A DNA stretch of 32,000 nucleotides from an uncultured Opitutales bacterium. Lineage in GTDB: Bacteria > Verrucomicrobiota > Verrucomicrobiia > Opitutales > Intestinicryptomonadaceae. The stretch is from assembly GCA_934660865.1 (NCBI GenBank), contig CAKUIA010000009.1:61312-93311 (forward strand), given 5' to 3'. The notes beneath the pieces were generated by a model. That model was not told where the DNA came from and made no database searches. It was given only the letters and a program-made list of their open reading frames with translations. Positions within the stretch are counted from its first letter, which is position 1. Each line of letters begins with the position of its first letter. Made by a program: the position numbers and the translations under genes. This document shows, one piece after another, positions 11,060-32,000 of the stretch.

Positions 11060-11091
11060 TTGTCGGAAGTATAACATCTAAAAAACAAAAA

Positions 11092-11124: not shown

Positions 11125-11160
11125 CGTTTTTATCGGGCTTGGAATTTTTTAATTTTCGCC

Positions 11161-17699: not shown

Positions 17700-17705
17700 C
17701 TTTAA

Positions 17706-17739
17706 AAGCCGCAAGTTCAAACACTTGCGGCTTTTTTTG
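17706..17739 (+). terminator. Rho-independent terminator after tRNA-Asp
   Basis: The stem AAGCCGCAAG (17706-17715) pairs with CTTGCGGCTT (17724-17733), whose last bases run into a T-run extending to 17738. Confidence 0.75.
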
Positions 17740-17841
17740 TTTCTACATTTCGCGCCAAACCCAGTATCCACGCGGTTTGCGGGGCTGTGATGCCGCGCAA
17801 AGCCAGTATTTAAGCCACTTGCGGCGGAACGCCCGCCCGCC

Positions 17842-17862
17842 CAAAAACCGCCAAAATTGGCG
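17842..17862 (-). terminator. Terminator of the four-gene ATPase operon
   Basis: The palindrome CGCCAAAATTGGCG (17849-17862) is followed on the minus strand by GTTTTT (complement of 17843-17848). It lies downstream of the last operon gene (stop at 17947). Confidence 0.5.
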
Positions 17863-17864
17863 TT

Positions 17865-17908
17865 TTGTTGGTGGTTTTTCCAACAATTCACCAACAAAAA
17901 TCCAACAG
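17865..17908. repeat. Phased heptamer array: one inverted copy plus three direct CCAACA(A/G) copies at 11-bp spacing
   Basis: TTGTTGG lies at 17865-17871, CCAACAA at 17880-17886, CCAACAA at 17891-17897 and CCAACAG at 17902-17908. In addition, 17865-17873 (TTGTTGGTG) is the exact reverse complement of 17889-17897 (CACCAACAA). Confidence 0.65.
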
Positions 17909-17946
17909 GATTTTGAGGCGTATTTTAGGCGCGTTTTTTCGCTTTT

Positions 17947-18369
17947 TCAACGTTCGCGGGCGAACATATTTTTGATTCGCGCCCAGAGGGTGGGGTTAAG
18001 CGCGGAGATTCGCTCCAAGTAGATTTCGGCGATTGGCTCTTCAATCTGCGGACATTCGACTTTTACCGCAGCCTCATACGCCGAATAGGTGTCTTTCGAG
18101 AAGGCATTTGCAAGCAAGGCTTGCAATTCTTCGTGCTTTTGGCGCGAAACTTTTACCGTGGGCGTTCCCTTTTTGGGGAACAATGACCTGTCGAGAAAGT
18201 GGTGCTTGTCCGGCGTTGCCAATCCTGCGGCACTTTTGCCGATATAGACTTTTCTCGTTCTAAGCTCGTCTGGAACTTTCGTTCTCTTCGCCGCCTGTTT
18301 TATAAAGGCATCATACGGGTTGTTTGTATCGAACCTGTCCTTGTGCTTGTTGAATGTTGCCAATTTCAT
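17947..18369 (-). CDS. Hypothetical protein, fourth gene of the ATPase operon
   Basis: 140 aa, MKLATFNKHKDRFDTNNPYDAFIKQAAKRTKVPDELRTRKVYIGK.... Its ATG directly follows the upstream stop (TAAATG at 18372-18367). I recognise no motif. Confidence 0.6.
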   Translation of the reverse strand: MKLATFNKHKDRFDTNNPYDAFIKQAAKRTKVPDELRTRKVYIGKSAAGLATPDKHHFLDRSLFPKKGTPTVKVSRQKHEELQALLANAFSKDTYSAYEAAVKVECPQIEEPIAEIYLERISALNPTLWARIKNMFARER

Positions 18370-18588
18370 TTAGTTCCTTTCGTAAGCGATTTGCTTTGCC
18401 GCCATCAGGCGCGAAACGTGCCGAAACGGCAGCTGAGCGACTCCTTCCATTGCGAAACAAAGTTCGCGGTTTCTGCGGCGGTATGACATATACCTGCCGT
18501 CGCGTTTGTATTTTGTGTGGGGGGTATTTTCTTTTTCCATATTTTTTAACATTGCGATAAAATGTGTATCGGTCTCAAAATTTATCAT
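18370..18588 (-). CDS. Small basic hypothetical protein, third gene of the ATPase operon
   Basis: The track ORF is 18370..18633. The internal ATG at 18588 (MINFETDTHFIAMLKNMEK...KYKRDGRYMSYRRRNRE...) overlaps the ATPase stop as ATGA (18588-18585), so I prefer the 72-aa form. Confidence 0.5.
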   Translation of the reverse strand: MINFETDTHFIAMLKNMEKENTPHTKYKRDGRYMSYRRRNRELCFAMEGVAQLPFRHVSRLMAAKQIAYERN

Positions 18589-20009
18589 CTGCGCGGAGTC
18601 CGAGCCAAGGCGTCCCTCAACCCTGCCAAACATTCTCGTTCTACATCGGGTTCTGTGCGCGGATTTCTATGTGGAACGTCCACAAACAGCCGTTCGAGCT
18701 TTACGGCGCAAGGCGTGCAAAAACCGTTCGCCAGCTTGACGAATGCGTATCCCTGCGGCAGATTTTCGGGCGAAGTAAATTCCTCGCGCGGTTCTGTATC
18801 GTCAGCATTGAAGCCGATGTTTGGGCGCGGAGGCGGAGCATATGCCGCGAACTCTACAAGTTTGGCGGCTTCGGGCTCGGACGTTCTAAACACGAAAAGG
18901 TTGTTGATGTTTGCGAGCAGATGGGCGCGTTCCCTTTCGCCGATTGCCAAGTCGAGAGCAACAATTCCCTGTGTTGCGGCAATGGCAAAACCGCCTTTGC
19001 TGCGCATTGTTTGGAGGTTGTAGGAATCGCTTGAAATGTCGCGACCGCCAGTTGCAACAAGCGGGAATTCGTCCATAACAATTCCCGCAATGCGGTTGTC
19101 GGGAGAGTCGCCGCGAAGCTGTATAGTCCTATAAAATTGGGCTTTCGCGAGTTTCGCCACGATTGCCGCCGCAAACTGGTTTGTTGTCGCGGGAAATGTC
19201 AGAACGACAATCTTCCCGAACTTTGCGGTGTCTCCGATATCCAAAAGCTTTTTGCCGCTTAAAAAGTTTCGGGTTGTCCGATTTTCGAGAAGCGCGAGTG
19301 TGTTTGTCATAGTGCTTATCTCGTTGCTTTTCGTGCGCGAATCGAGCTTTTGCCACTCCGACAGGTCGGATTTTAGCCGCTTTGCAATGCGCTTTATCTG
19401 CGCCCAAGCCGCGTTTTTTCTCGATTTGTCAACGGCTTCGCGCCGGCAGATTTCGGGCAAAGCGGAAGAGATGAAATCCCGCCATTCGTCGATTTTGTCC
19501 GAATCCAAAAAATCCCGAAACGAATCGGTGAATTTGTCGAAATCCATCGAATCGTGGCGGAAGAGACAGAAGTTAAAAATTGTATTCAAACGCTTGCGGA
19601 ACGCCATTGTCCAATACACGTTTTCGCCGCTGTTGTCGCCGAATGCGGACATCAGGAAATCTACAAGTTCCGAAACTTTCGCGGACGAGTCCGCTTCGGC
19701 AAAAGGATTGATGTAGTAGTGTCCGTCGCCCGAGAAGTCCACAACATCGCGCATTCTGCCGCATTCGTGCGCCCACTTTTTGATTTTGCAAAGCGTACCG
19801 TCGTTTTTGAAATCGAAGAGCAACAAGCCTATTTTCCGCCTCTTGTCGTCTGCGCGAAAGGCAATCAGCCCGCGCAATAGGGCGTTTAGCGATGTTGTTT
19901 TGCCGCTGCCCGTGCTGCCGATAAAAAGCGTGTGCTTGCAAAGGGTGTCGGCGGTCAGGACGATTTCCCTACCGCCGCCGTTTAGCTTTGTTATAATTTC
20001 GTCTTTCAT
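18585..20009 (-). CDS. Soluble VirD4/TraG/TraD-like P-loop ATPase (FtsK-HerA superfamily) with no N-terminal membrane anchor
   Basis: The track ORF is 18585..20081. The ATG at 20009 overlaps the upstream stop as ATGA (20009-20006), giving 474 aa. Walker A is FIGSTGSGKTT (19893-19919). Walker B is GIVMDEFPL, with the DE pair at 19068-19073. These are followed by MRSKGG, AIAATQGIVALD and LFVFRTSEPEAAKLVEF. A helical insert of about 150 aa separates the two Walker motifs, as in type IV coupling proteins. Confidence 0.8.
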   Translation of the reverse strand: MKDEIITKLNGGGREIVLTADTLCKHTLFIGSTGSGKTTSLNALLRGLIAFRADDKRRKIGLLLFDFKNDGTLCKIKKWAHECGRMRDVVDFSGDGHYYINPFAEADSSAKVSELVDFLMSAFGDNSGENVYWTMAFRKRLNTIFNFCLFRHDSMDFDKFTDSFRDFLDSDKIDEWRDFISSALPEICRREAVDKSRKNAAWAQIKRIAKRLKSDLSEWQKLDSRTKSNEISTMTNTLALLENRTTRNFLSGKKLLDIGDTAKFGKIVVLTFPATTNQFAAAIVAKLAKAQFYRTIQLRGDSPDNRIAGIVMDEFPLVATGGRDISSDSYNLQTMRSKGGFAIAATQGIVALDLAIGERERAHLLANINNLFVFRTSEPEAAKLVEFAAYAPPPRPNIGFNADDTEPREEFTSPENLPQGYAFVKLANGFCTPCAVKLERLFVDVPHRNPRTEPDVERECLAGLRDALARTPRR

Positions 20010-20485
20010 GCGAAAATGCCAATGGGCGTCAAAATTTCCTCGGCAGGCGTTGGACGGTCGTTTCCGAATCGTGCCCGCCAAAGCCTTGCCAACTCTTCCC
20101 TTGCTTCGAGGTCGTAGGCGTTCTCGAATATTTCGCGGAACTTCTCCCTCGTTATCCTCCCGAAAACGCCTTTCTCTTCAAGAACGGGAAGAAGGCTGTT
20201 TTCCACCATTACAACTTCCGCCCAGACATCGTCGGGAAGCGTCAGTCTTCGCCAAAGCGGTTTTTCGAAATTCCGCTCCGCAAACAAAAGTGCCGCGATA
20301 TCCGTTTGGGGTATTTGGTATCCGTCCGAAACAATCCGCCCGAACGCCTCGTAGACCAAAGGATTTAGGCGCAAAAACATTACGGGCAAAAGCGAATGTT
20401 TCTTGATAAACGCGAGTATTTCCCCGTTCAGCGCGCCTTCGTTTTTGTCAATCATTTCAAGTAGTTTTAGATATAATTTATTCAT
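20006..20485 (-). CDS. Hypothetical protein, first gene of the ATPase operon
   Basis: 159 aa, MNKLYLKLLEMIDKNEGALNGEILAFIKKHSLLPVMFLRLNP.... It looks helical and I recognise no motif. Its stop overlaps the ATPase start. Confidence 0.6.
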   Translation of the reverse strand: MNKLYLKLLEMIDKNEGALNGEILAFIKKHSLLPVMFLRLNPLVYEAFGRIVSDGYQIPQTDIAALLFAERNFEKPLWRRLTLPDDVWAEVVMVENSLLPVLEEKGVFGRITREKFREIFENAYDLEAREELARLWRARFGNDRPTPAEEILTPIGIFA

Positions 20486-20516
20486 ACAAACCTTTCGTTG
20501 AGTTAAAATGGTTTGT
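20486..20516 (-). promoter_or_regulatory. Hairpin or inverted repeat abutting the start codon of the operon's first gene
   Basis: ACAAACC (20486-20492) and GGTTTGT (20510-20516) are 7-bp complementary arms with a 17-nt spacer. On the minus strand the 3' arm ends directly at the ATG (20485). Confidence 0.3.
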
Positions 20517-20639
20517 ATTTGCGTCTAAAAATTTACCTGAACTAAGTTTGACATGCTGCGAAATATTCTTCCATAGTCGATAAAATTGCATTTAACTGCA
20601 AAATTACAGAGTGTAGACGATTATTTTACAAAAAAACAC

Positions 20640-20675
20640 TTGCAAAATAATATTTTATAGCCGATTATTTTGCAA
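20640..20675. promoter_or_regulatory. Perfect 12-bp inverted repeat (operator candidate) upstream of the AAA+ ATPase gene
   Basis: TTGCAAAATAAT (20640-20651) and ATTATTTTGCAA (20664-20675) are exact reverse complements with a 12-bp spacer, 20 bp upstream of the ATG at 20696. A third, direct half-site CGATTATTTTACAAA lies at 20618-20632. Confidence 0.45.
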
Positions 20676-20695
20676 ATATTGAATATTTTTAGGTT

Positions 20696-21967
20696 ATGGA
20701 CGAATATTTTGCAGGCATAGAGAAATTTAACTTTTGGGGAGATAATCCGCCCGATTTGGGATTTTCGCGCAAATTTTATCTCGAAAAAATAGCGGCGTAT
20801 TCGGAGAGCAAATTGATAAAGGTTCTCGTCGGGCAAAGGAGGGTCGGCAAAAGCTACATTCTGCGGCAAATACTTTTTTCACTCGTAAAAAGCGGACTTC
20901 CAAAAGAGAACACCCTTTACATAAACCGCGAATACGCCGAGTTCGGCTTCATAGAAAGCGCGGAGGATTTGGAGCGCGTCTTTGCCGAATATAAAAAGCG
21001 GATGTCTCCGAAAGGCAAAATCGCCATGTTCATCGACGAAATACAGAACATAAACGGCTGGGAAAAATTCGTGAATTCGCACTCGCAGGATTTTACCGAA
21101 GAATGCGATATCTACATAAGCGGCTCGAATTCTAAAATGCTTTCGGGGGAGCTTGCGACGTTGCTTTCGGGGCGATATATCCAGTTCGAGATTCTGCCGT
21201 ATTCGTTTGTAGAGTTTGCCGAGGTAAACGGACTTTCCGCCGATAGGCAGGCGTATTTGAAATACCTTGCAACGGGCGGGCTTCCCGCTCTTACAACGCT
21301 TCCGACCGAGGAAAGCCGACGCAACTATGTAGACGCGTTAAAAGACACCGTGTTGTTGCGCGACATCGTGCAACGATACAATATAAAAGACCCGAATCTG
21401 CTGGAAAATCTTTTCGCGTTTGCCGTAAACAATTCGTCGTCGCTGATTTCAATCGGCGGCATCGTCAAATACTACAAAGGCAAAAATAAGGCGACGACCT
21501 ACGAAACCGTTTCGTCATACTTGGAATATATGCAAAATTCGTATATTTTGCACAAAGTTGATAGATTTGATATGCGCGGCAAGGAAGTATTGTCGGGCAA
21601 AAGCAAATACTACCTCAACGATTCCGCCTTTCACAACTACCTTTTTGCAGGCGTTGGCTACGGGATAGGATACCAGCTCGAAAACCTGGTTTATCTCGAA
21701 TTGCGCAGGCTCGGCTTCGATGTTTTTGTGGGGACTACGAGGACAAAGGAAGTAGATTTCGTGGCGAAGAAAAGCGACCGTGTTGTTTACATTCAAAGCT
21801 GTTATTTGCTATCCGACGAAGAAACCGCCAAACGCGAATACTCGGCGTTGGAGTCGATTCACGACAACTACGAAAAATACGTTGTTTCGCTCGACGATGT
21901 AAAAATGCCGAACCGCGGCGGGATAATCCACCTGCGCGCGTGGGAGCTGCAAGACGCGCTCAAATAG
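20696..21967 (+). CDS. AAA+ ATPase of the AAA_14 + DUF4143 architecture
   Basis: 423 aa. Walker A is VGQRRVGKSY (20831-20854 covers GQRRVGKS) and Walker B is IAMFIDEIQNINGWEKFV. The C-terminal half (VDFVAKKSDRVVYIQSCY...) resembles the widespread, uncharacterised DUF4143-type ATPases. Confidence 0.75.
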   Translation: MDEYFAGIEKFNFWGDNPPDLGFSRKFYLEKIAAYSESKLIKVLVGQRRVGKSYILRQILFSLVKSGLPKENTLYINREYAEFGFIESAEDLERVFAEYKKRMSPKGKIAMFIDEIQNINGWEKFVNSHSQDFTEECDIYISGSNSKMLSGELATLLSGRYIQFEILPYSFVEFAEVNGLSADRQAYLKYLATGGLPALTTLPTEESRRNYVDALKDTVLLRDIVQRYNIKDPNLLENLFAFAVNNSSSLISIGGIVKYYKGKNKATTYETVSSYLEYMQNSYILHKVDRFDMRGKEVLSGKSKYYLNDSAFHNYLFAGVGYGIGYQLENLVYLELRRLGFDVFVGTTRTKEVDFVAKKSDRVVYIQSCYLLSDEETAKREYSALESIHDNYEKYVVSLDDVKMPNRGGIIHLRAWELQDALK

Positions 21968-21969
21968 CG

Positions 21970-22908
21970 TTATTTTGCCTTGGCGGTTTCTTTTTCCAAA
22001 GCTTTCTTATTTTCGCGCTCTTCGTCGGCTGTCTGCCTTTTTAGGATTGTGCGCAAAGTTTCTTCGCTGTCCACATCGTCGGAGAATTCTTTGCAAACGT
22101 CGTCGAATTCTGCGGAACTATACTCTTTAACGAAGCTGTCGCGGAACTTTTTCAACGCCTGCTCAGGCGTATGATTTTTTCGGTCATATAATGCGAAAAA
22201 ATGGTGTTCGTATTTGCTGCGTTCGGTAATGTCGTCCCTGCCGTCGTTCGAGTCTGAAATGCAATTAGGGTGGCACGCAAAGACAACGGCGATATATTTG
22301 CCGACGTTGCCGTTGTATTTTTGAAATTCTACATTGCGGACAACCAGCCCGTAGCGTCGGCGCGGAAGCTTTGTTCGCTTGTCGGTTGGAACAATTTTGC
22401 GCCGAAGCGGAATTTTAAAATCCCTTTTCAGAATGCGCGTAATCGAAGAGGGCGGATATATCGCCTTTCTGTCTTCGGATTGCGTTTTATCGGCGGGCTG
22501 TTTTGATTTCACGCTTTGAGGTTTGCGCCTTTGCTTTTTTGAAGTCCATTTGTATCTGCACCCGCAAATGTCGTCGCGGCATTTATTGAGCTCGCCGCAG
22601 ATTTTCGAGCGCGTTTGAATTTCACCCGAGGTGAGGCAGTCCAAAATTAGTTCGTTGCGGGCGTTCAAGTTCGACGCCGGCGGCCGTCCGCGCCCGCAAT
22701 ACGGTATGTCAGCGTAAAGCCTATGCACTTCTTCGGCTGAATCGAAATCCCCTTCTTCGCGGATTATTTTTAGCATTCTGCGAATATGCGCAGGCTTGAT
22801 TGGCGAATCTTCCAACTCGAGTTTTCGATACGCATACCCGACGGAGCAATCCCCCAGCGATTTCAGTGCGTCGTACGTTTTCTCGAAAATTGTTGCATTT
22901 GAAGCCAT
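21970..22908 (-). CDS. Hypothetical protein with a Cys cluster and a basic linker, divergent partner of the helicase
   Basis: 312 aa. It contains the Cys cluster CGELNKCRDDICGCRY, the basic stretch TSKKQRRKPQSVKSKQ and a KE-rich C-terminal tail. I recognise no enzymatic motif. Confidence 0.55.
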   Translation of the reverse strand: MASNATIFEKTYDALKSLGDCSVGYAYRKLELEDSPIKPAHIRRMLKIIREEGDFDSAEEVHRLYADIPYCGRGRPPASNLNARNELILDCLTSGEIQTRSKICGELNKCRDDICGCRYKWTSKKQRRKPQSVKSKQPADKTQSEDRKAIYPPSSITRILKRDFKIPLRRKIVPTDKRTKLPRRRYGLVVRNVEFQKYNGNVGKYIAVVFACHPNCISDSNDGRDDITERSKYEHHFFALYDRKNHTPEQALKKFRDSFVKEYSSAEFDDVCKEFSDDVDSEETLRTILKRQTADEERENKKALEKETAKAK

Positions 22909-22928
22909 TTGATATTTTATATAAACAT

Positions 22929-25343
22929 ATGTTAGACGAACTGAAATTCAAAGCTTTTTTACAAGAAACCCTCAATCGGGCACCCGATGACGACCAAATG
23001 GCGGTTCTTCGCGAAATCGCGCGGGTGGCCGAGTCAAATGAGGCTTTGAATTATTTTAGGGTTGGCGCAAGCGCGGGCTCGGGAAAAACCACACTGATTT
23101 TATTTGCCTATGCCCTGCTCAGAAAATTTTGCGGAGTCCACAGTAATCAAATCGTAATTCTTACGCTTAATACACGCATCTCCAACAAGATTAACCTCGA
23201 AATCAAGGCGATTGAAAACAAACTGGAGGAACCCGAGCTTTCGGACGTTTGCGCATACACATTCCACGCATTTGCCATGAGATTTTTGAGAAAAGTCTCT
23301 ATGAAAAAAGGCGACATATTAACAGAAAATGCCAGTGTCTATCATAAAGATGTTTCATATAAGTTCCAGAATTTTATAGGCGAGGAATATCTTGACGATG
23401 AAAAGTTCCGAAAAGACATCGACAATCTCGATTTTCTTGCACATTCGGAGGCGGACTGTTCGACCGAAAAGTCGAAAAAAGTAATGTTGTCGGAGAGGCT
23501 GTCTGACTTCGGAATTTCGAGCAACGGAGCTGTGCTTCGCGGCGACATTGGCAGGCGTTGCTCGAAGGAATTTCAACAAAACCGCACGCTGCGCGGGGAC
23601 TCGTTATTGGACTCGGCGGGGAATCCGCTACCGCAAGCTTTTCAGAAGAGAATCTGCGACATCGCAAACCGCCTTTTCCTTTGGGACATAAACTACGACT
23701 TAAAAATTTGCGACGCCCGTGCGATAATTTCGATTATCGACAACTCTGACTTTGGACAAAACCGGTCTGCCGAATCGGCAAGGCGAAAATCGTATATTGA
23801 AATCGTTGACGGAGACCAAGACGACAATATGTTTTACGGATCGCTTTTGGTAAACGGCAAGTTTTTGAAATCTTTGCCGACGCAACCTACGCCCGAAGAT
23901 TGGCTAAAGTTTTCGCCCGAAGAAACGCCGTCTGACATCGCCGAATTGAGGGAATTTTGCAACGAATGCAATGCCAATACGGAAGGGCAGAAAATTAAAG
24001 ACCTTTCCGGCCTCACATACATCGGCAAGGACGAACTATCGAAGTTCCTAATGGAAATAATAGAACGGCTGAGAGCCGAAGGGAAGATAAGCGTTGTGCC
24101 CAAATCCGGCAGTATGGACGTAAAGACATATGTGGATAAAATATTAAAAAAGTATTCGTCGTCGAATGGTAATGTAGAATCGGGAAGTAATTTAATCGGA
24201 GGAAGCGTAAAAACGCGCGCACAAATCGAATCTTTTTTCAATATCCTATCTACTACGTTGTGCGAACTCATTGACGTAAACTTCGAAACATTTTCAGCTG
24301 TTATGGAAAAGGCGGTCGGAAAAAGTCCGTTGTCGAGTAGGTGCGAAAAAATGCTTAGCAATTTGCGTTTTGTGTTTGTTGACGAAGCTCAGGATATGAA
24401 CCGCGTTTTTGTAGACGTTTTAAAAGAAATTAGAAAGTGTGCGCCCGCCGCCAATTTCATAACGGTAGGCGACCCGGCGCAGGCAATTAACAGGTTTATC
24501 GGCGCACATCCTACGCTGTTTTTGAATTTGGCAAATCCGTCGAAGTCTGTGGACATTCCCAAAGACGGCGCGGATACAGGCGACAACACCAACCATACTC
24601 CCCAAGGGCAGGAAAACCCGTTCGGTAATTTCAAAGTAAAACGCTTTGAGTTGCCAATCACATATCGAATGGATTTAAAGCTTGTTAATGCCGCCAATAC
24701 TTTCAAAAATTTCAAGCGTGTAAAAAGCGACAATTCAAATTCACCCGACATGCGGCTATTCGGACTTACCATGCGTCCGTGTGCCGGAAAAACAAGCAAT
24801 GGGGATATTGAGGTTCACTGCATCGCGCCGAAGGTTATGTCGGAATTTTCAAAAAAGTTCTACGATACGCTTTGCGGGATAATCGAAAAGGAATTGGCGA
24901 AAAATGAAGACGCCGATTTTGCACTGCTAGCCAGAACAAACTTGGTGGATTCGATAGGCGATTTGGAGCTGATTAGACAAAAAACGCTGTCGCTATTGAA
25001 ATCGAAAGGCGTAAAACTCTCCCCCGCGAAATTGAGAGCTTCAACCGTCCATAGATACAAGGGCGAAGAAGCCGACTGTGTCGTAATTCTCGATGCGACG
25101 GACAAAAACTATCCGAAACACTTCGATGAAACGGCGGAGAAAATCAAGCAAATCCTCTTCAATGATCCGCCAAGTGCATATTATGACGATTCGGTAAACT
25201 TGTTCTATGTCGCCATAACGCGAGCCCGACATTCGCTGCACTTCATTTGCAACGACAACCCAAGCGCATTTTTGACGAGGGCGGGAATTTTGACTGCACG
25301 GACACGGCTCAATGAGAGGGAAGCCAGCCAAGACGTCCGCTGA
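22929..25343 (+). CDS. UvrD/Rep/PcrA-like superfamily 1 helicase with an enlarged region between motifs I and II
   Basis: The track ORF starts at a TTG at 22800. The first ATG at 22929 gives 804 aa. Motif I is GASAGSGKTT (23064-23093), followed by TFHAFAMRFL. Motif II is FVFVDEAQDMN (DEAQD at 24381-24395) and motif III is ITVGDPAQAINRFIGA. Then come ELPITYRM and ALLARTN. Motif VI is TVHRYKGEEADCVVIL (from 25044), followed by LFYVAITRARHSLHF. Confidence 0.85.
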   Translation: MLDELKFKAFLQETLNRAPDDDQMAVLREIARVAESNEALNYFRVGASAGSGKTTLILFAYALLRKFCGVHSNQIVILTLNTRISNKINLEIKAIENKLEEPELSDVCAYTFHAFAMRFLRKVSMKKGDILTENASVYHKDVSYKFQNFIGEEYLDDEKFRKDIDNLDFLAHSEADCSTEKSKKVMLSERLSDFGISSNGAVLRGDIGRRCSKEFQQNRTLRGDSLLDSAGNPLPQAFQKRICDIANRLFLWDINYDLKICDARAIISIIDNSDFGQNRSAESARRKSYIEIVDGDQDDNMFYGSLLVNGKFLKSLPTQPTPEDWLKFSPEETPSDIAELREFCNECNANTEGQKIKDLSGLTYIGKDELSKFLMEIIERLRAEGKISVVPKSGSMDVKTYVDKILKKYSSSNGNVESGSNLIGGSVKTRAQIESFFNILSTTLCELIDVNFETFSAVMEKAVGKSPLSSRCEKMLSNLRFVFVDEAQDMNRVFVDVLKEIRKCAPAANFITVGDPAQAINRFIGAHPTLFLNLANPSKSVDIPKDGADTGDNTNHTPQGQENPFGNFKVKRFELPITYRMDLKLVNAANTFKNFKRVKSDNSNSPDMRLFGLTMRPCAGKTSNGDIEVHCIAPKVMSEFSKKFYDTLCGIIEKELAKNEDADFALLARTNLVDSIGDLELIRQKTLSLLKSKGVKLSPAKLRASTVHRYKGEEADCVVILDATDKNYPKHFDETAEKIKQILFNDPPSAYYDDSVNLFYVAITRARHSLHFICNDNPSAFLTRAGILTARTRLNEREASQDVR

Positions 25344-25349
25344 CAAATT

Positions 25350-25388
25350 TTGCCGCAAAGCGCGAAAATACGAATCCGCCTGCGGCAA
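25350..25388. other. Inverted repeat between the convergent helicase and HTH genes (possible weak terminator)
   Basis: TTGCCGCA (25350-25357) and TGCGGCAA (25381-25388) form an 8-bp stem with a 23-nt loop. There is no T-run on either side. Confidence 0.3.
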
Positions 25389-25391
25389 AGT

Positions 25392-25751
25392 CTACTCCTC
25401 TTGTTTTGCCGAAAGGTATTTTTCGGCGAAAAGCGTTTTTTTACGTCTGCTCGAATCGGATTTTATCGGAGTGATGCTTTTGTATTTTTCGTCGGATGCA
25501 ACCGCTGCAAAATCGAACTTAGCCTGCATTAGCAACAGATTGTTTTCGGGCGGAATTTCCAACGCTTTCCCAATGCGGCAGGCGGTATCGGGAGTAAACG
25601 CGCGCTTTCCCTTCACCAAGCGCGAAACGACATCGGGCGTCAATTTTGACTCTTTGGCGAGCGCATACATTGTTATTTTTCTGTCGGCAAGCAAGCGCGC
25701 CAAGAATTTGTGGGGGGATTCAGACTGGTTGCCATCGTGAGTTGCATTCAT
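25392..25751 (-). CDS. XRE-family HTH protein, HigA/VapI-antidote-like
   Basis: 119 aa. The text PHKFLARLLADRKITMYALAKESKLTPDVVSRLVKGKRAFTPDTACRIGKALEIPPENNLLLMQAKFDF follows the HigA-type pattern (…GKR.IT.DTA.RL.K.. then …Q..YDL). Confidence 0.7.
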   Translation of the reverse strand: MNATHDGNQSESPHKFLARLLADRKITMYALAKESKLTPDVVSRLVKGKRAFTPDTACRIGKALEIPPENNLLLMQAKFDFAAVASDEKYKSITPIKSDSSRRKKTLFAEKYLSAKQEE

Positions 25752-25878
25752 AACGATAAGAGAATTAGGTTGTTGGATATATATTTGCTTATCGATATAC
25801 TATTTACAAGCAAAATTATTGTTATTTAAGTTCACAACACGTGCAATTATAACCTCCCCACCGCCAACGGACTGCGCG

Positions 25879-25907
25879 TATATATCATAAACGCGCAATT
25901 GTGTCAA
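25879..25907 (-). promoter_or_regulatory. Sigma-70-like promoter candidate with an inverted repeat embracing the -10 box
   Basis: On the minus strand, TTGACA (complement of 25902-25907) is followed by a 17-nt spacer and then TATATA (25879-25884). The 7-bp arms TGCGCGT/ACGCGCA flank the -10 box. It lies about 125 nt upstream of the HTH gene start. Whether this host uses -35/-10 promoters is unknown. Confidence 0.35.
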
Positions 25908-25952
25908 TCGAACTTACAATGTTTATGTTCTTGCTACGCAAGAAGGAAATTC

Positions 25953-25988
25953 AAAAAAAAGAGATACCTCCGAAACCGAAAGTATCTC
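25953..25988 (-). terminator. Rho-independent terminator after the relaxase gene
   Basis: The stem GAGATAC (25961-25967) pairs with GTATCTC (25982-25988). On the minus strand a T8 run follows (A-run on the plus strand at 25953-25960). It lies 27 nt downstream of the stop at 26015. Confidence 0.7.
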
Positions 25989-26014
25989 TGAATATGGCAG
26001 CTCAATCAAAATTA

Positions 26015-27409
26015 TTAACGATCAAAATCATAACTACGTTGTGTATCTTGCGTAGGCTGGTTTTGTTGCGTCCTACTTTGCGGTGGCGGATACCCTTGTT
26101 GTTGTCCGGTCTGTTGTTTTTGAGTTTTCTGCTGTTCCTTTTCGTGGAAGAATTCTTCCAAATCTTTTATGATATACAAAAATAGTACCATCATTTTACT
26201 ACCATTTGGCGAAAGTTTTTTTTCCCACTCCTGCTGAAATTTTTCTAACGTCGAAACATACTGTATATTTCTGAGAGCATCTGACAACATGCCCCTAACT
26301 TTTGTGCCAGCTTCCGAAATTCGTCTTGTTGTTGTTTTAAGGTTTCTTTCAATTGATAGATTTCCTGGGTGTAGCTTTCCATGATATTCTCTTCCATCTG
26401 ATCCATCGATCTGTTTAGCGCCTCCACTTCCCTCGCCAAATCTTTCGCTATTTCCTGAACCCCCTCGCGAAGAATTCCGTGAATCTGCGACTTGGGTTTT
26501 TTCAACTCGTTCATGAGGATTTCCGCAAACGGCGGAATCATATGATACAGAATTGGCGTTGCTGTTTTTGACATGTTGTCCAATGTTGTTGCTTTGTTCT
26601 GGGTGTTCATAGTTTTTTAAGTATTTATATTTATTTTTAAGACGCGCGTAGCGCGTTTGGGAAAGTTTTTTGTATTGTTCGTCAACATCTACTCCTTCCG
26701 AATCAATCGCACGCGTGTTGTCGTTATTACAAAGATTGCCTGTAAGTTTTATCTTCGTATCTCCCGATTTTACTGTTATCGAAGTGTCGGTCTTTCGGTT
26801 TATGATAAAATTGCTTTGCTTTAAAAACCTTTCGAAATCCTCGCGGTTGTTTATCGCTTTCCCATACTCCGACATCTCATTTTTCAGTCTGAGGAAAAGC
26901 GACTGCTGAGACGAATTCCAATATTTGTTTGCATCGGCAAGTCCCCGCCTGAGCTCGGGCGAATTCGGGTCGGTGAGTTTCGGATATTTTTTATGGATAT
27001 AACGCCCGAACGCCTCGAAGTATTTTCTGTCGTATTTATCGAAATAGACCGGGAAATATCTCCCGCCGACACTCTCCGCCGCAACGAAGTTTAATTCGAA
27101 ATCGTGCTTGGGATTGTCGTGCAAGATGAACAAGTGTTGAAAGTTCGACTTGTCCATATTTGGATAAACCTTCTCCAGAATGTCGTCCATTAACGAAGCA
27201 AGAAACTTTGTCCCTCCAAGCTCCGCAAGCGACTTTTTGTCGCGATAGCAGAACGTCACATAGCCCTTCTTTTTGCTGGATTTTTGTTCGATTTCGCGCA
27301 TAAAACTGTCATAGCAACCGCCGACAATTGTTGAGGGACGCTTGCGTCCTTTTGAATCTACATCGCCGAGCAAGTACTTTAACGTAGACGGTAAATATTC
27401 TATAATCAT
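26015..27409 (-). CDS. Putative mobilization relaxase (MobA/VirD2-like N-terminal domain); the C-terminal half has an uncertain gene model
   Basis: 464 aa. Its ATG overlaps the mobC stop as ATGA (27409-27406), the usual mobC-relaxase arrangement. The N-terminus MIIEYLPSTLKYLL contains a candidate catalytic Tyr. HLFILHDNPKHDFELNFV resembles the relaxase His-rich motif, but only two His align. The Q/P-rich tail is of low complexity. Confidence 0.6.
   Translation of the reverse strand: MIIEYLPSTLKYLLGDVDSKGRKRPSTIVGGCYDSFMREIEQKSSKKKGYVTFCYRDKKSLAELGGTKFLASLMDDILEKVYPNMDKSNFQHLFILHDNPKHDFELNFVAAESVGGRYFPVYFDKYDRKYFEAFGRYIHKKYPKLTDPNSPELRRGLADANKYWNSSQQSLFLRLKNEMSEYGKAINNREDFERFLKQSNFIINRKTDTSITVKSGDTKIKLTGNLCNNDNTRAIDSEGVDVDEQYKKLSQTRYARLKNKYKYLKNYEHPEQSNNIGQHVKNSNANSVSYDSAVCGNPHERVEKTQVADSRNSSRGGSGNSERFGEGSGGAKQIDGSDGREYHGKLHPGNLSIERNLKTTTRRISEAGTKVRGMLSDALRNIQYVSTLEKFQQEWEKKLSPNGSKMMVLFLYIIKDLEEFFHEKEQQKTQKQQTGQQQGYPPPQSRTQQNQPTQDTQRSYDFDR
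26245..26610 (-). other. 121-aa ORF nested in the +1 frame of the relaxase ORF (possible separate gene)
   Basis: The ATG at 26610 has an A-rich leader like other genes here. The product MNTQNKATTLDNMSKTATPILYHMIPPFAEILMNELKK...EIYQLKETLKQQQDEFRKLAQKL has amphipathic, coiled-coil character. The relaxase frame over the same bases reads as G/S/R-rich low-complexity text. Confidence 0.3.
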
Positions 27410-27858
27410 CTCGAATTCCTTTGTCTTATCTGCGATAGGATTTCTTTGTGTAATTCGGAATTACTTTTTACATATTCCACTATCGCTAAGCATTCGTCGC
27501 CGTTCTCAATTCCGCGGGCGAAATCTTCTATTGCCATAGCCTTACCCAGAATTTTCACAAGCGCAGCCTGTGTGTTTAATATATCGATGGGGTTCTCGTA
27601 TTTCAGCGCAAAATTCAGATCTCGCGCAATCTGGTTGAGATTGTTTGAAAGCCTGCTGATTGCCACAATACGCGCATGTTCAATTGTCTCTTTTTTGACG
27701 AAAACAAGATCTCGTATCTTTCCGAGAAAATCCGCAACGGCGTTACGTATAAGCTCGCCGACACTGATTTCCCGCGCCTTCGCCTCCGCGTTCCATAATT
27801 TCTTTTCCTTTTCGGGAACGCGAAATTCCACTCGTTTATCTTTTGTTTCTTTGTCCAT
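27406..27858 (-). CDS. mobC: Relaxosome accessory protein MobC
   Basis: The track ORF begins at a TTG at 27918; the ATG at 27858 gives MDKETKDKRVEFRVPEKEKKLWNAEAKAREISVGELIRNAV (RHH-like). This is followed by the MobC signature ISRLSNNLNQIARDLN. Confidence 0.8.
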   Translation of the reverse strand: MDKETKDKRVEFRVPEKEKKLWNAEAKAREISVGELIRNAVADFLGKIRDLVFVKKETIEHARIVAISRLSNNLNQIARDLNFALKYENPIDILNTQAALVKILGKAMAIEDFARGIENGDECLAIVEYVKSNSELHKEILSQIRQRNSR

Positions 27859-27905
27859 AATTACAATTTTCCTTAAGAAACGCGTAGCGTTTTCGGGGGT
27901 GTCCA

Positions 27906-27956
27906 GAGGGGGTGTCAACCACCCTCGGCAAGCTGGGGTAATGTCCGTGTACGGAC
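27906..27956. promoter_or_regulatory. Candidate oriT region (inverted repeats upstream of mobC)
   Basis: An imperfect inverted repeat pairs GAGGGGGTG (27906-27914) with CACCCTC (27920-27926). A perfect palindrome GTCCGT-GT-ACGGAC lies at 27943-27956. Both sit in the short gap upstream of mobC, where oriT usually lies in MobC/relaxase modules. Confidence 0.35.
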
Positions 27957-27992
27957 AATTCCCCTATGCTTGCACTGCGAAACCCGTGTTGG

Positions 27993-28877
27993 TTACCTTT
28001 CAATATACCCCCCTTCCTGACTTTGTGTTTTGCCTTTTTGAGGTCTCTTTGTCGCCTTGGGAGACTGGGCTTTCAACAACGCCAATGCCTCCGTCGTTTT
28101 TTGGCTGAAAATTCCCAGCGCGATTTCCCAATCGGTAATAATCTGATTCGATTCCGGGGATATGCGTTTTTTCGCCGAATCAATAGCGCGCTTGTAAAAT
28201 TTCTGCGCTTTGGTAAATCCGCTGAAAATGTTTTTTACTTTCATCGAACGTGTTTGCTTTACTCCGACAGCTTTCGGTTTCGGCGAAGACGTTATCTTTG
28301 GAATCTTCGGGATTAGCGTTTTGCATAATTTTGCGATTTGTTTTTCTACGGGGATTGCTTTGTTCGCCACGCTTTTTATTTTCGTATACGAAAGCGTTTT
28401 GATTCTGCCCAACAACTGCTCGTCTTTTATCGCATCGAAAAGTTTTTTTACCCTCGCACATTTGTAGAATTCGCTACGCGATACGAGAAACTTTTTTTCA
28501 CTCGGGAACATCTCCTGAAATTTTGCGTAGTAGTTGATACTTCCATTCGATTTTCCGTCTGGCGGGACAATCTGCGGATTTTTCTGTAAAATCCGCAACG
28601 TCATTTGCCCCTTGCCCGATTCTACAAAATTCCTGATGCGTTTCCCGCTTTCTCCGAATTCGACAATCGCCTTGGCTAAATCGCCTCCGTTGTTTTCGAG
28701 ATATAAATCGATATAAGACTCGATTTCGGCAAAACTTTCCGGAACTACCTTTTGTGAAATGGCATTCTGCTTTGGCGTTGTCGGACACGTTTCTTCGGCT
28801 ATTTCCGTCTCGTCGATTTTTGCCGACGGGTCTCTGCCGAATGTATTTTGCATTTCAGGTAAATCTGGTTGTTCCAT
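27993..28877 (-). CDS. Hypothetical protein of the element backbone
   Basis: 294 aa with an acidic N-terminus and a Lys-rich C-terminus. I recognise no motif. It is co-oriented between the Xis-like gene and mobC. Confidence 0.5.
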   Translation of the reverse strand: MEQPDLPEMQNTFGRDPSAKIDETEIAEETCPTTPKQNAISQKVVPESFAEIESYIDLYLENNGGDLAKAIVEFGESGKRIRNFVESGKGQMTLRILQKNPQIVPPDGKSNGSINYYAKFQEMFPSEKKFLVSRSEFYKCARVKKLFDAIKDEQLLGRIKTLSYTKIKSVANKAIPVEKQIAKLCKTLIPKIPKITSSPKPKAVGVKQTRSMKVKNIFSGFTKAQKFYKRAIDSAKKRISPESNQIITDWEIALGIFSQKTTEALALLKAQSPKATKRPQKGKTQSQEGGYIER

Positions 28878-28880
28878 TGT

Positions 28881-29189
28881 CTACCTTTCCATTTGGGGTT
28901 GAACGAAGCGGTGGTCGTATTTAGCTTTGAGAATTTTCTCTACGCGCAATACCTCCGATTTCACATAGGAATGCGGTTTCCCAATGCACCGCATTTCGGG
29001 ATACTTTTTTAGGTATTTCCCGAATGTTCTTCGCGACATTCGCAATATTGCGAGAGTCTGGTGAATGTCTATCAGTTCGACTCCGCAATATTCCGACAAT
29101 TTTTTGTCGTTTACTTCGGAGGTCGTCCTGATTGTTTGCGCTATTTTAAGTAGCGACTCTATTTCTGCGTCATTTAGTTCTATTATCAT
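28881..29189 (-). CDS. HTH DNA-binding protein, excisionase (Xis/AlpA, HTH_17)-like
   Basis: 102 aa. The text LIDIHQTLAILRMSRRTFGKYLKKYPEM fits the short MerR-like excisionase HTH. It lies directly downstream of the integrase gene. Confidence 0.55.
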   Translation of the reverse strand: MIIELNDAEIESLLKIAQTIRTTSEVNDKKLSEYCGVELIDIHQTLAILRMSRRTFGKYLKKYPEMRCIGKPHSYVKSEVLRVEKILKAKYDHRFVQPQMER

Positions 29190-29237
29190 TTGTACCTTTT
29201 TTTATGATTGTATTCATAAGTTTTACTGGGTAAAAAT

Positions 29238-30395
29238 TTACGCTTTCGAATTTTCCGTTGATTCCTCCGCCAAGCTTTGCGGCGTGATGGAGAAGAATTT
29301 TTCGGCATCTTCAATATTGGCGCTGCCCATATAGTGCTGAGCCAGCGTGGCGTAGCCACGAATGTGCCCCATGTCGGCAACGGTCTTTTGCGGCCCGAAT
29401 TTGAAATACGCGTATGTGGCGAACGTATGCCGCAAAACGTCCTGCGAGAGGGCAACCGGCAGCCCGCGCCGCATTTTCCGAAACGTCCAATACGAGCCTT
29501 TTATTATGTTTCCTTCCCGTTCGTCCTCGGGAACGGTTTCCAGAAACGCCCACAAGTTTTCGGAAACATTTTGAGTGGCGCGCTGCTTGCGCACTTTCGA
29601 TGTCTGCCCCTGAATCGTGATAACTTTCGATTTGAAGTTGATGTCCGACCACTGCATAAAACGCTTCTCGAAATTGCCAATCAGTTCCCCCGGGCGGACT
29701 CCGTAAAACGTCATCAGCGCAAAGCCTGCCAGATACTCTTTCGGAACTGATTTCAGCAGAGTTTTGACCTCTTCGACTGACAGAATTTTCGCAGGCATCG
29801 TGTCGCTATACTTGCGCATAAGCGTAACCTCGGCGGCAACGTCTTCCGTAATGTATCCCTCCCGTTTGGCGAACTTGAACAACGCCTTGATTACTTTGAG
29901 GTTGTTCTTCTGCGAACCGCTCGAACGTATGTAGGATTCGATTTCGCTTTTTAAGATTGTCGCGAAATTTCGAGTTCCATTGAAGTAAGTGATAAAGCGG
30001 ACGCGCAGGTATTGGTCGTATTCCTTGAGCGTTTTGTCGCGGAGATTTATGTGCTGGCTGTGTGCCATAAAGTTTCGCACGCAGTCCCGCACCAATATGA
30101 CCTTGTTGTATGAATTCAACTCGACGCGCCTGATGGCGTCCTTGATTACAATCTCGGTGGACAGCCCGCGCCTGTGGCATTCCGTGTTGAGCTTTAAGAC
30201 GGCCAAACGAACGCCGCTTGGAATTGTCATATCCTCTGGGAGCGAATACTCGCTCCTAAGCGAAATCATAAAAGATTCCGCTTCGCTTTTGGTCGTAAAC
30301 GACCTTGATTTTAATTTGCCCGCATCGGGATAAAACACCAAATAAGGCGATTTGCGCCCGTCGCGATACTCCAGTCTAATTGAATTTGTTTTCAT
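29238..30395 (-). CDS. int: Tyrosine recombinase / phage-type integrase
   Basis: The track ORF opens with a GTG at 30437; the ATG at 30395 gives MKTNSIRLEYRDG. The catalytic-domain text is FYGVRPGELI (box I Arg), LRHTFATYAY (His-x-x-Arg) and MGHIRGYATLAQHYMG (the final His/Tyr region). Confidence 0.9.
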   Translation of the reverse strand: MKTNSIRLEYRDGRKSPYLVFYPDAGKLKSRSFTTKSEAESFMISLRSEYSLPEDMTIPSGVRLAVLKLNTECHRRGLSTEIVIKDAIRRVELNSYNKVILVRDCVRNFMAHSQHINLRDKTLKEYDQYLRVRFITYFNGTRNFATILKSEIESYIRSSGSQKNNLKVIKALFKFAKREGYITEDVAAEVTLMRKYSDTMPAKILSVEEVKTLLKSVPKEYLAGFALMTFYGVRPGELIGNFEKRFMQWSDINFKSKVITIQGQTSKVRKQRATQNVSENLWAFLETVPEDEREGNIIKGSYWTFRKMRRGLPVALSQDVLRHTFATYAYFKFGPQKTVADMGHIRGYATLAQHYMGSANIEDAEKFFSITPQSLAEESTENSKA

Positions 30396-30490
30396 ACAAG
30401 GGAATGTGTTCCGCGGATAAAATTTCCGCCAAAACACCGAATCCCTTTATACGTGCGTAGCACGTCCCGCGCCCACTCGGGCGCACCCTC

Positions 30491-30525
30491 TAAAAAACAA
30501 AAAGCGGCAAAGTCCCCTTTGCCGC
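30491..30525 (-). terminator. Rho-independent terminator of the 31881-30649 two-gene module
   Basis: The stem GCGGCAAA (30504-30511) pairs with TTTGCCGC (30518-30525). On the minus strand it is followed by TTTTTGTTTTTT (complement of 30492-30503). Confidence 0.7.
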
Positions 30526-30648
30526 CGATGTTTGTTGTAAGATGCCGTTAAACGCAAAATCCGATTCTATTGTTGCTATTTGTTGAACGGTCTCTTTTTG
30601 AATTCGGTCTCGTACTTTAAACGTTCAAGAATATCGCGCATGCTCGAT

Positions 30649-31137
30649 TTATTCGATAAGCAGTTTTCCCATCTGAATTTCAATGTTTTCTTCTTTTAGC
30701 TTTATCATGTCTTGTAATGCAAAGAGTCCGTCGCAAAAGAACCAATGGGTGGCATAGCAGATATGAATACTGTATTTTCTCAGTGGCTCGAAGATTTCAA
30801 TGTCCCAATTTTCGTCTTCCAAAAGGGTTGAAATTCGGTCTGCGGGTTTTTGGGAATCGACCGAAAGCATATACGGAGTTTGATGTTCGGCAACTTTGGG
30901 TGGAAAGTTTATTCTTATTGCTTCTTCTACCGAGTAATTCCCTTCTATTACACCGATATTTACCAAATGGTTTAACAAACGTTTTCCTTTACACAATCTA
31001 TCAAAAAGTTCGTGTGATTTTCTGAGCAGAATAGAGTTAACCCGCTTTATTTGGGCAATGTTTTCTTCGGAAAACTCAAACTTTTTATTCAGTCGCATTT
31101 TCCTATTATGCAATTTTTTTGTGATTTTATTTCTCAA
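30649..31137 (-). CDS. Hypothetical protein, partner of the FtsK-like pseudo-ATPase
   Basis: 162 aa (an alternative Met lies at residue 14). I recognise no motif. It starts 12 nt after the upstream stop. Confidence 0.5.
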   Translation of the reverse strand: MRNKITKKLHNRKMRLNKKFEFSEENIAQIKRVNSILLRKSHELFDRLCKGKRLLNHLVNIGVIEGNYSVEEAIRINFPPKVAEHQTPYMLSVDSQKPADRISTLLEDENWDIEIFEPLRKYSIHICYATHWFFCDGLFALQDMIKLKEENIEIQMGKLLIE

Positions 31138-31149
31138 AATATTTACCTC

Positions 31150-31881
31150 CTATAAAATGCGAAATTTCTGTAAGTCGTCCTTAGTTTGGAGAATTACATC
31201 ATCTTTTAGCGGACGAACTTGGTCTTTCGTGTTTTGCAACACACTTTTAGATGCATTGTAAATGCGTTGGTAAAATTCAAGGCGGGTGGGAAAATATGCG
31301 TTCCATGCGTCGCGAATACACGGAGGTTCAATGGAATAGTTAGACGTAGCAACGATTAGAAATACCCCCGTTCCCTTTGTGTAGAGAGCCTTGTTTATAA
31401 ATTCGTGAAAGAAAAAATGATTTCCCTTCCGCCCAAGCAATTTTGAATAATCGGAGGTGATGGAAACAATGACGGGTAATTTTCTCTTTGCAGTTTTGTT
31501 GTATTCAAAGAACGAACCGCCAAAGTTTTCCAAGAGCTTGTATCTTTCGCGGTAAATTCTGTAAAGCACGTCTGCTACATAGAGAATTTCTGGAGTTCTG
31601 GTTTTTACCTTTCCTCCCCAAAAATGGCAATTCCCTTTAAAACTCGAAAAGATTTTTCTCTCATTTGAATTTAAAATTATCTCCAATTCCTCGTCGGAAT
31701 AACGTTCCGAAAGCGATTTGATTAAGGTTGAAACGTATTTTGTCAAAAAGCGGTTGTCTCCTCCAATTAAAATATTGTCGAGTGAGAACAAGTCTTTGTA
31801 AACGGTTTCACCTACGTCGTTTTTCCCAATCGGAATAGTTATAGCTTTTTCAGGTTCAAAATTTTGATTTTTGTCTTTCAT
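31150..31881 (-). CDS. Stand-alone FtsK/SpoIIIE-like domain protein with degenerate Walker A, Walker B and arginine-finger motifs
   Basis: 243 aa, collinear with the FtsK motor core. [41 protein letters not shown] aligns with [54 protein letters not shown]..YNKT aligns with [31 protein letters not shown] aligns with [46 protein letters not shown] aligns with [30 protein letters not shown]. Confidence 0.65.
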   Translation of the reverse strand: [243 protein letters not shown]

Positions 31882-31904
31882 GTTAATTTATATACAAAAA
31901 TGCA

Positions 31905-31946
31905 GCGACAGAATACGTCGCATTCGTACATGTCGTATTCTGTCGC
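31905..31946. promoter_or_regulatory. Perfect 13-bp inverted repeat upstream of the FtsK-like gene (operator or leader hairpin)
   Basis: GCGACAGAATACG (31905-31917) and CGTATTCTGTCGC (31934-31946) are exact reverse complements with a 16-nt spacer. They lie 24 bp upstream of the ATG at 31881. Confidence 0.5.
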
Positions 31947-32000
31947 ACTCATGTATTAATGTCTTTTCAATTAAAACTTGCGCTTTGCTGTGTGTAATAT

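Follow-up and report, generated by a model that had tools for sequence, protein, structure and literature searches.

A conserved operon for a degenerate, free-standing FtsK domain and an orphan partner behind predicted DriD-type boxes in an island of gut Verrucomicrobia

We analysed a stretch of 32,000 nucleotides (nt) from an uncultured Opitutales bacterium (contig CAKUIA010000009.1, positions 61,312 to 93,311), referred to here as the window, and compared it with related contigs and loci, labelled L002-L142. Near the end of the window lie two open reading frames (ORFs) on the minus strand, one for a protein of 243 amino acids (aa) that resembles the FtsK motor and one for a 162-aa partner. 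The features at this locus are as follows:

31150-31881, minus strand: ORF of the 243-aa FtsK-like gene, ATG start
30649-31137, minus strand: ORF of the 162-aa partner gene, TTG start
31905-31921, minus strand: predicted DriD-type box GCGACGTATTCTGTCGC of the 243-aa operon, core CGAC-N7-GTCG
31889-31894, minus strand: -10-like hexamer TATATA, 10 nt after the box, with 7 nt between it and the ATG
31930-31946, plus strand: second, divergent box ATGTCGTATTCTGTCGC, serving a PD-(D/E)XK (PDDEXK_4) gene
31957-31962, plus strand: TAATGT, following the second box after N10
30548-30641, minus strand: remnant, with one frameshift, of the final ~31 codons of a gene for a 738-aa double-AAA+ protein
30503-30526, minus strand: terminator-like hairpin with a T-run, now ending the two-gene operon

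Separated by 12 nt, the genes for the 243-aa and 162-aa proteins make up a two-gene operon that is conserved. The TTG start of the partner gene lies 7 nt downstream of an AGGAGG Shine-Dalgarno sequence and coincides in alignment with the ATG start of its homologues, and the 243-aa protein cannot extend further at its N-terminus, because a TAA stands in frame 9 nt before its ATG. Both ORFs had been proposed in an earlier note on this DNA, as had their location in AT-richer sequence; the G+C fraction (GC) of the module is indeed 0.37, compared with 0.46-0.48 for the remaining window. A cultured relative is Opitutia bacterium KCR 482 (CP149973.1; gene P3B99_008725).

In the 243-aa protein, the RecA-like beta domain of FtsK exists as a free-standing unit. 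Searches with the single window protein give borderline scores, both for Pfam PF01580 (11.2 bits, E 0.25) and for Escherichia coli FtsK in the PDB (2IUS, E 0.014), and a match to FtsK/SpoIIIE-like proteins in PHROGs (E 3.8e-7). Family member P0006 matches PF01580 with 26.7 bits, above the curated cut-off of 24, and the family profile finds 2IUS with an E value of 4.7e-7 and also matches Pseudomonas aeruginosa FtsK. When an AlphaFold model of the protein was compared with the PDB by Foldseek, the FtsK motor 2IUS ranked first (E 1.9e-10, template-modelling score 0.66-0.68), followed by a second tier of EssC, EccC and TcpA, with E values from 1e-9 to 1e-4 for the EssC and EccC domains; a weak NCBIfam match to EssC was also seen. 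HMMER alignments to the E. coli and P. aeruginosa proteins reproduce the block-by-block correspondence that had been described from the letters alone, including the retained blocks lGK..GE.V..DL, RYKL, L..AT and PTR..F. The 243 residues cover only the beta domain: no Pfam family besides PF01580 was matched, and the alpha and gamma domains and the membrane anchor are absent. The description of a stand-alone protein with a small partner holds.

Among 1.84 billion representative proteins, the family profile had 5200 matches with E≤1e-3, of which 444 scored ≤1e-10; the aligned part is ~13-240 of the profile, and the matches sampled were mostly FtsK-type proteins with an intact Walker A motif. Members of the family itself score at ≤1e-120 and the next full-length protein at 3e-31, a gap so wide that the family is evidently an isolated offshoot of FtsK proper.

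In FtsK of P. aeruginosa, the arginine finger is R620, located in the sequence ARAAG, and the pore residues R632 and K643 of loop II and K657 and R661 of loop I grip the DNA backbone (PMC7321959). We located the equivalents of these residues by counting along an alignment of the family profile with FtsK, using the published numbering, and took the motif replacements in the 243-aa protein from HMMER alignments:

Walker A, GTTGSGKS: replaced by GGDNRFLT
Walker B, VDEF: replaced by TSDY
ATQRPS: replaced by ATSNYS
R620, arginine finger: K169, invariant in the family
R632, the R of ATQRP in loop II: N181, invariant in the family
K643, loop II: N194
K657, loop I: Y208, at a position not conserved in the family
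R661, loop I: K212, at a position not conserved in the family

The three motif replacements are those given in the earlier note. Its identification of ATQRPS as the arginine-finger region does not stand, as the arginine of this motif is the DNA-gripping R632 and the finger R620 aligns with K169. The replacements recur in 8/8 sequences of the family alignment. In the Walker A region, GGD alone is kept and the lysine is absent from 8/8 sequences; in place of the Walker B consensus hhhhDE the family has VSIT[SCH]DY, such that Asp is changed to Ser, Cys or His and Glu to Asp in all members. ILIGGD, VSITxDYS and SNY are invariant, and the remainder of the former P-loop is variable. The core strands and the arginine of PTR (R200) are kept. 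By these alignments, the pore residues that grip DNA are gone from the protein, and ATP chemistry has in all probability been lost as well. Because Walker A and B, the arginine finger and the pore-loop residues R632 and K643 are all replaced, ATP-driven pumping of DNA should be impossible for it.

The family is very small, with 7 clusters found among 5.8 billion proteins, four of them 88-94% and three 38-42% identical to the 243-aa protein. Pairwise ratios of nonsynonymous to synonymous substitution rates (dN/dS) were calculated for 5 orthologues:

243-aa FtsK-like gene: dN/dS 0.065-0.124, dS 0.12-0.73
162-aa partner gene: dN/dS 0.28-0.48, dS 0.09-0.23

The 243-aa gene is therefore under strong purifying selection, as the earlier note had supposed, and its product is far more constrained than the partner. 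The loss of every catalytic motif, together with the absence of alpha, gamma and membrane domains, is what one would see in a decaying remnant of a larger FtsK-like gene. Nonetheless, the low dN/dS over dS values of up to 0.73 leads us to reject this reading of the ORF, to which we assign next to no probability. Length is steady at 241-260 aa, and 62 columns, the replacement motifs among them, are invariant down to 38% identity. The gene is, moreover, served by its own promoter, 23 nt upstream, and has a stop codon in frame just 5' of its ATG, neither of which suits a pseudogene.

A separate and unrelated instance of a free, degenerate FtsK beta domain was seen on a phage contig with terminase and portal genes (L142:6086-8780), in which FtsK is encoded in pieces: a 104-aa FtsK_alpha ORF, a 259-aa beta-domain ORF with degenerate Walker A (GSGVT) and Walker B (NEF) motifs and DNL replacing QRP, and a fusion of FtsK_gamma with a peptidase of the FtsH type.

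The partner gene adjoins the FtsK-like gene in every locus recovered, usually downstream of it and upstream in L006, L007 and L138. Alignment of 13 members shows KSHELFD, DR.S, NWDIE and IH.CYA.H.FF.DGLFAL to be invariant. The AlphaFold model of the partner is good, with a mean predicted local distance difference test score (pLDDT) of 82.5: residues 1-60 form a long helical hairpin with an isoelectric point (pI) of 11, and the remainder is an acidic alpha/beta domain (pI 4.7). The best-conserved stretch, DR.S.L.E.ENWDIE..PL at residues ~100-120, is the single low-confidence part of the model. Because it is conserved and yet poorly predicted when the protein is modelled alone, as interface peptides often are, this stretch is likely to be a binding interface. 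The partner has no match in Pfam, NCBIfam, PHROGs or PADLOC, a sequence search of the PDB returned nothing, no fold match was found in the PDB or BFVD, and no relative was found among the viral contigs searched. Its family is rare as well, with 14 clusters and 5 metagenome loci from the Joint Genome Institute. That the partner might have split off from FtsK as its alpha or gamma domain was considered and rejected on null sequence, profile and fold searches; neither FtsK_alpha nor FtsK_gamma was matched, nor any FtsK fold.

FtsK/SpoIIIE is the best sequence, profile and structure match of the 243-aa protein, which shares the fold of the beta domain (PF01580; 2IUS, 2IUU, 6T8B) with collinear blocks over ~230 residues. 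Unlike those motors, it has no alpha, gamma, linker or membrane domain, and Walker A and B, the finger, R632 and K643 are replaced. We call it FtsK-derived and not FtsK, because everything by which the translocase family functions is missing. The D2 and D3 domains of EssC and EccC (5FV0, 4LYA, 4NH0, 4N1A, 6TV1) are likewise non-hydrolysing modules of the FtsK fold, with regulatory or substrate-binding roles. These, however, lie inside a three-domain ATPase that is anchored in the membrane and encoded in type VII secretion loci, whereas the present protein is a single free domain with a partner that is not WXG100-like, in an island of Verrucomicrobia. The link to type VII secretion suggested by the earlier note's parallel finds no counterpart here, since the protein has a single domain and no type VII secretion family (WXG100, EssA/B, EccB/D/E) occurs in the annotated neighbourhoods of the related loci. 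Literature searches found no described free-standing family of degenerate FtsK domains.

Upstream of the FtsK-like gene lies a perfect 13-bp inverted repeat (31905-31917 and 31934-31946, 16-nt spacer) that is kept in related contigs and whose chance expectation in 32 kb is ~0.02 by our own estimate. When the upstream regions are aligned, the conserved unit is a 17-bp box, GCGAC-GTATTYT-GTCGC, and not the 13-bp repeat, which is best read as two divergent boxes of the form GCGAC-N7-GTCGC. The repeat that the earlier note had described is thus real, and the part of the claim that made it an operator private to the module falls away, as such boxes are common to many genes of the island. The sequence beyond the window end was inspected in L002, 642 nt past it: the divergent PDDEXK_4 gene, with its own box, begins ~18 nt beyond the window. 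This gene and the facing second box are found in the window, L009, L010 and L134, and L005 has the gene-proximal box only. An RNA hairpin or terminator formed by the repeat was considered and rejected, because both predicted transcription starts point away from it. An apparent compensatory change in L009 proved to be a T for C in both boxes at the variable Y position.

The promoter of the 243-aa gene has the layout box-N10-TATATA-7 nt-ATG, so its mRNA is probably leaderless or nearly so. The distance of 22-23 nt from box to ATG is kept in L005, L008, L009, L131, L134 and L137. In a set of 6 non-redundant loci totalling 93 kb, the box was found 32 times, compared with 0.145 times in shuffled sequences (maximum 2), and positions 1-30600 of the window have 0 matches. 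Boxes head 4-9 genes in each related island locus, and nearly all lie 20-100 nt ahead of a gene start. Across 36 unique contexts, exactly 10 nt separate the box from a TAtAnT sequence, with T in 28/36 at +11, A in 33/36 at +12 and A in 26/36 at +14. No -35 hexamer is present, the box bases at this position matching TTGACA at 1/6 positions. Genes headed in this manner comprise the operon of a WYL-domain regulator, which also encodes an RNase T-like exonuclease and a PdaC-like protein, the FtsK-like operon, PD-(D/E)XK, the 738-aa AAA+ gene, DUF6140, Trp-repeat proteins and small ORFs; a DSPc-like phosphatase is likewise encoded in this set of operons.

DriD of Caulobacter, DdaA of Acinetobacter and PafBC of mycobacteria are WYL activators that sense single-stranded DNA (ssDNA) and drive a non-SOS response to DNA damage. 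In Caulobacter, the DriD site ATACGAC(N7)GTCGTAT lies over a missing -35 element at a fixed distance from the -10 element (PMC13004042), and the core shared by DdaA and DriD is CGACN7GTCG (PMC13010146). In the published promoters of didA and CCNA_03891 we counted an identical 10-nt gap, to CAAGGT and CAATCT respectively, and found a similar T-rich spacer. The island boxes therefore resemble the DriD, DdaA and PafBC sites in their CGAC-N7-GTCG core, T-rich spacer, missing -35 element and 10-nt gap, and the divergent promoter pair resembles that of driD and CCNA_03891. They differ in that the genes they head are clustered in one low-GC island and are mostly orphans, not known repair genes. Literature searches found no FtsK-like target of DriD, DdaA or PafBC, and the DriD-type regulon predicted for the island is previously undescribed.

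A candidate regulator is encoded within the island. Its 332-aa protein has winged helix-turn-helix, WYL and WCX domains (wHTH-WYL-WCX) and matches DriD best in the PDB (9PFQ/8TP8, E 4.5e-5), followed by PafBC. In L005, L008-L010, L131-L133, L137 and L139, its gene is found at a distance of 1-3 kb from the module. It carries a box of its own, unlike that of DriD, which does not autoregulate. Outside the related loci, an exact 17-bp box was found 44-52 nt upstream of a WYL homologue in Chthoniobacter flavus (L057:1531-1547) and in Cognatilysobacter xinjiangensis (L069:5875-5891), and so box and regulator appear to travel together across phyla. A wider scan of genome contigs gave at least 120 matches across phyla, a breadth that proves little because ~400 chance matches would be expected in 596 Gb by our own estimate; only loci with a WYL homologue were counted, and adjacency was checked for L057 and L069.

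In related loci, genes for PdaC, an RNase T-like protein and the WYL regulator usually lie in one orientation, and are followed in the other by genes for a 412-aa Trp-repeat protein, a DSPc-like phosphatase, the FtsK-like protein, the partner and the 738-aa double-AAA+ protein, with the PD-(D/E)XK gene, where present, pointing the opposite way between phosphatase and FtsK-like gene. Variable cargo of defence type (SIR2, GmrSD, Fic, HipA, restriction-modification) surrounds the island in relatives. The search of PADLOC-DB 2.0 matched neither the 243-aa nor the 162-aa protein at E≤0.1.

Three other sets of island genes were recorded. The Trp-repeat paralogues share a ~25-residue repeat, W..LL..QPQF...CDK.NGW, with no Pfam match; their genes (L005:2096-3769, L005:8228-9466, L009:2528-3847, L009:4866-5522 and L007:1955-2914) are mostly box-headed, as judged from those of L005 and L009. 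A 70-aa protein with one N-terminal hydrophobic segment (L005:3966-4178, L009:4046-4258) is preceded by a box plus TATTAT or TATGAT, and has an outline like that of AciT, a small membrane-anchored division inhibitor induced by damage; DidA is another protein of this type. A 163-aa DSPc-like phosphatase of the HCxxGxxR type (L005:9453-9944 and homologues) belongs to the constant gene set of the island; it matches phrog_5614, a phage family of unknown function, with an E value of 4e-11.

In the window, the AAA+ gene has been deleted. The translation of its remnant, ...RDILERLKYETEFKK / KRDRSTNSNNRIGFCV*, matches the C-terminus of the AAA+ protein of L005 and L134. Homology to relatives in blastn comparisons fades no more than ~20 nt past the partner stop, inside the degenerate left half of the AAA+ box (GCGCGATAT vs GTGCGACAT), and reappears over the final ~90 nt of the AAA+ gene; this starting point suggests a microhomology-mediated deletion. 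In L137, only the last 29 AAA+ residues remain, directly after the partner. By synteny, the terminator-like hairpin at 30503-30526 is that of the AAA+ gene, given that the remnant lies upstream of it and that identical sequence follows the AAA+ gene in L005 and L134. A terminator is therefore present, as the earlier note had it, and only its assignment to the module as its own has to be given up.

These neighbours raise the question of whether the FtsK-like protein and its partner act as a substrate-adaptor pair, or as a latent complex open to loading, remodelling or activation by the 738-aa AAA+ unfoldase, the three forming one machine. FtsK-like, partner and AAA+ genes are consecutive in L005 and L131-L136, and L006, where identity is 40%, has an AAA+ gene of this type nearby. 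The AAA+ protein is Cdc48/IetA-like, matching IetA/IteA anti-phage ATPases and TRIP13/CDC48 models, and the CoCoNuT defence-island extensions include either an EssC-like FtsK with inactive domains or a CDC48-like AAA+ protein, each with small proteins (PMC11090510). Conversely, the AAA+ gene has a separate box and promoter, it is 8 kb away in L009, and the window and L137 have lost it by a clean deletion but keep the pair intact and under selection. We regard such an adaptor role as a possibility of rather low probability.

On its other side, the module faces an integrative mobilisable element, the parts of which are listed here:

17623-30437: integrative mobilisable element, beside tRNA-Asp
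17623-17699: tRNA-Asp
18585-20081: VirD4-like coupling protein, FtsK/HerA superfamily
20696-21967: AAA_14/DUF4143 protein
22800-25343: UvrD-like helicase
26015-27409: 464-aa protein with no Pfam match, in the relaxase position
27406-27918: NikA/MobC
within the element: 294-aa and 102-aa proteins
29238-30437: tyrosine integrase

The attachment repeats of the element were not found when the 3' end of tRNA-Asp and the junction at 30430-30660 were compared with the whole window. A 17-nt exact direct repeat, CTAAAAAACAAAAAGCG, occurs at 30489-30505 and 11077-11093, both in A-rich terminator tracts, one after the module and the other after the gene for pyruvate phosphate dikinase; with flanks so rich in A, the match has probably arisen by chance. 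In relatives, N-terminal fragments of the same integrase lie directly after the AAA+ gene (141 aa at L005:13633-14055, overlapping a gene called as ISL3 transposase; 78 aa at L134:6696-6929 and L135:3850-4083), which suggests that such elements have inserted repeatedly at its 3' end. No integrase follows this gene in L131-L133, where the AAA+ C-terminus differs.

The module abuts the integrase in the window, as had been noted earlier, and could in principle be an accessory of the element, for example a helper or regulator of the VirD4-like coupling protein, which belongs to the same FtsK/HerA superfamily; coupling proteins of the TcpA type are among the fold matches. However, in L006-L008 and L131-L133 the pair is present and integrase, relaxase and coupling protein are all missing, so the adjacency stands and the tie to the element does not. 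A tblastn search with all element proteins found only the integrase fragments in related loci, synteny breaks within ~20 nt of the partner stop, and GC changes from 0.37 to 0.46. Judged from these comparisons, the FtsK-like/partner pair is not part of the mobilisable element. The distribution of loci largely refutes an accessory role, which we hold to be very improbable.

The two genes are small, lie 12 nt apart and change places between lineages, a frequent feature of toxin-antitoxin families, and could also form a toxin-antitoxin or abortive-infection pair fired by DNA damage or phage. The predicted inducible promoter would suit such a pair, as would the low-GC variable island with SIR2, GmrSD, Fic, HipA and restriction genes beside it in relatives. 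Against this, neither protein resembles a toxin or antitoxin or matches a PADLOC model, and no DNA-binding domain of the antitoxin kind can be recognised in them. The box also heads many genes of other types and is not a private autoregulatory operator, and the much stronger constraint on the 243-aa protein has no obvious toxin-antitoxin reading. Such a pair therefore seems unlikely to us.

It is also conceivable, if doubtful, that the 243-aa protein and its partner, once induced by the WYL regulator in response to ssDNA, mimic a motor, docking onto and jamming FtsK-family hexamers such as the septal FtsK of the host, the coupling protein of a conjugation system, or an ATPase with which a phage packages its DNA or takes over the cell. 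This would be compatible with a domain that derives from FtsK proper and not from coupling proteins, that keeps the core fold and that has lost the parts needed for activity. It would also fit the function of didA, a DriD target, and aciT, a DdaA target, as damage-induced cell-division inhibitors. The 70-aa membrane-anchored protein of the same regulon, however, could fill the division-inhibitor role. If true, a pseudo-enzyme would here have become a new kind of damage checkpoint or of effector against invaders.

Our preferred reading, which we hold to be somewhat better than an even bet, is that the 243-aa protein is a non-catalytic scaffold acting with its partner in a WYL regulon inducible by damage or phage. 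The DriD-like regulator of the island would bind the box and switch the operon on when ssDNA accumulates, whether through DNA damage or through attack by phage or plasmid. As DNA pumping should be impossible, the dead FtsK domain would serve as a binding scaffold or receptor, comparable to the degenerate D3 domains of EssC and EccC, which bind substrate tails. The partner would be its most likely ligand, and the output would be a damage- or invader-induced response together with the neighbouring nuclease and AAA+ genes.

Several observations weigh against this proposal. The AlphaFold model of the 243-aa protein is of moderate quality (pLDDT 66, predicted template-modelling score 0.67), and physical contact between the two proteins is suggested by gene linkage alone. 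In L009 the partner is called as a 107-aa C-terminal fragment (10906-11229) beside an intact and constrained FtsK-like gene, due either to recent decay or to an assembly error. Given this shortened partner and the lack of the AAA+ gene in the window and L137, the components are not strictly interdependent. The WYL gene of the window would lie beyond its end, its presence being deduced from the near-identical L009, L010, L134 and L137. Finally, the box could be a repressor site. CapW and BrxR are WYL-WCX regulators beside defence genes that act as repressors, with one operator per system, and the island WYL gene carries a box, unlike driD. Like these proteins, the island regulator is a wHTH-WYL-WCX protein with an autoregulatory box beside defence-like genes, and is predicted to sense ssDNA, as CapW is reported to (PMC11662680). 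With a repressor, ssDNA induction would still be expected, because CapW too senses ssDNA. The island differs from the CapW and BrxR systems in its multi-promoter regulon and its activator-type geometry.

To our knowledge, pseudo-ATPase FtsK domains have been known solely as internal modules of type VII secretion ATPases. The operon described here introduces a free-standing, strongly constrained pseudo-ATPase FtsK family with a dedicated orphan partner. It belongs to a multi-operon island of gut Verrucomicrobia that appears to be wired by DriD-type boxes with Caulobacter-like geometry, which would extend the recently solved mechanism of DriD activation to another phylum and to mostly uncharacterised genes. 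The prediction that follows is that DNA damage induces the operon via the WYL regulator, and the cultured strain KCR 482 makes its function directly testable.

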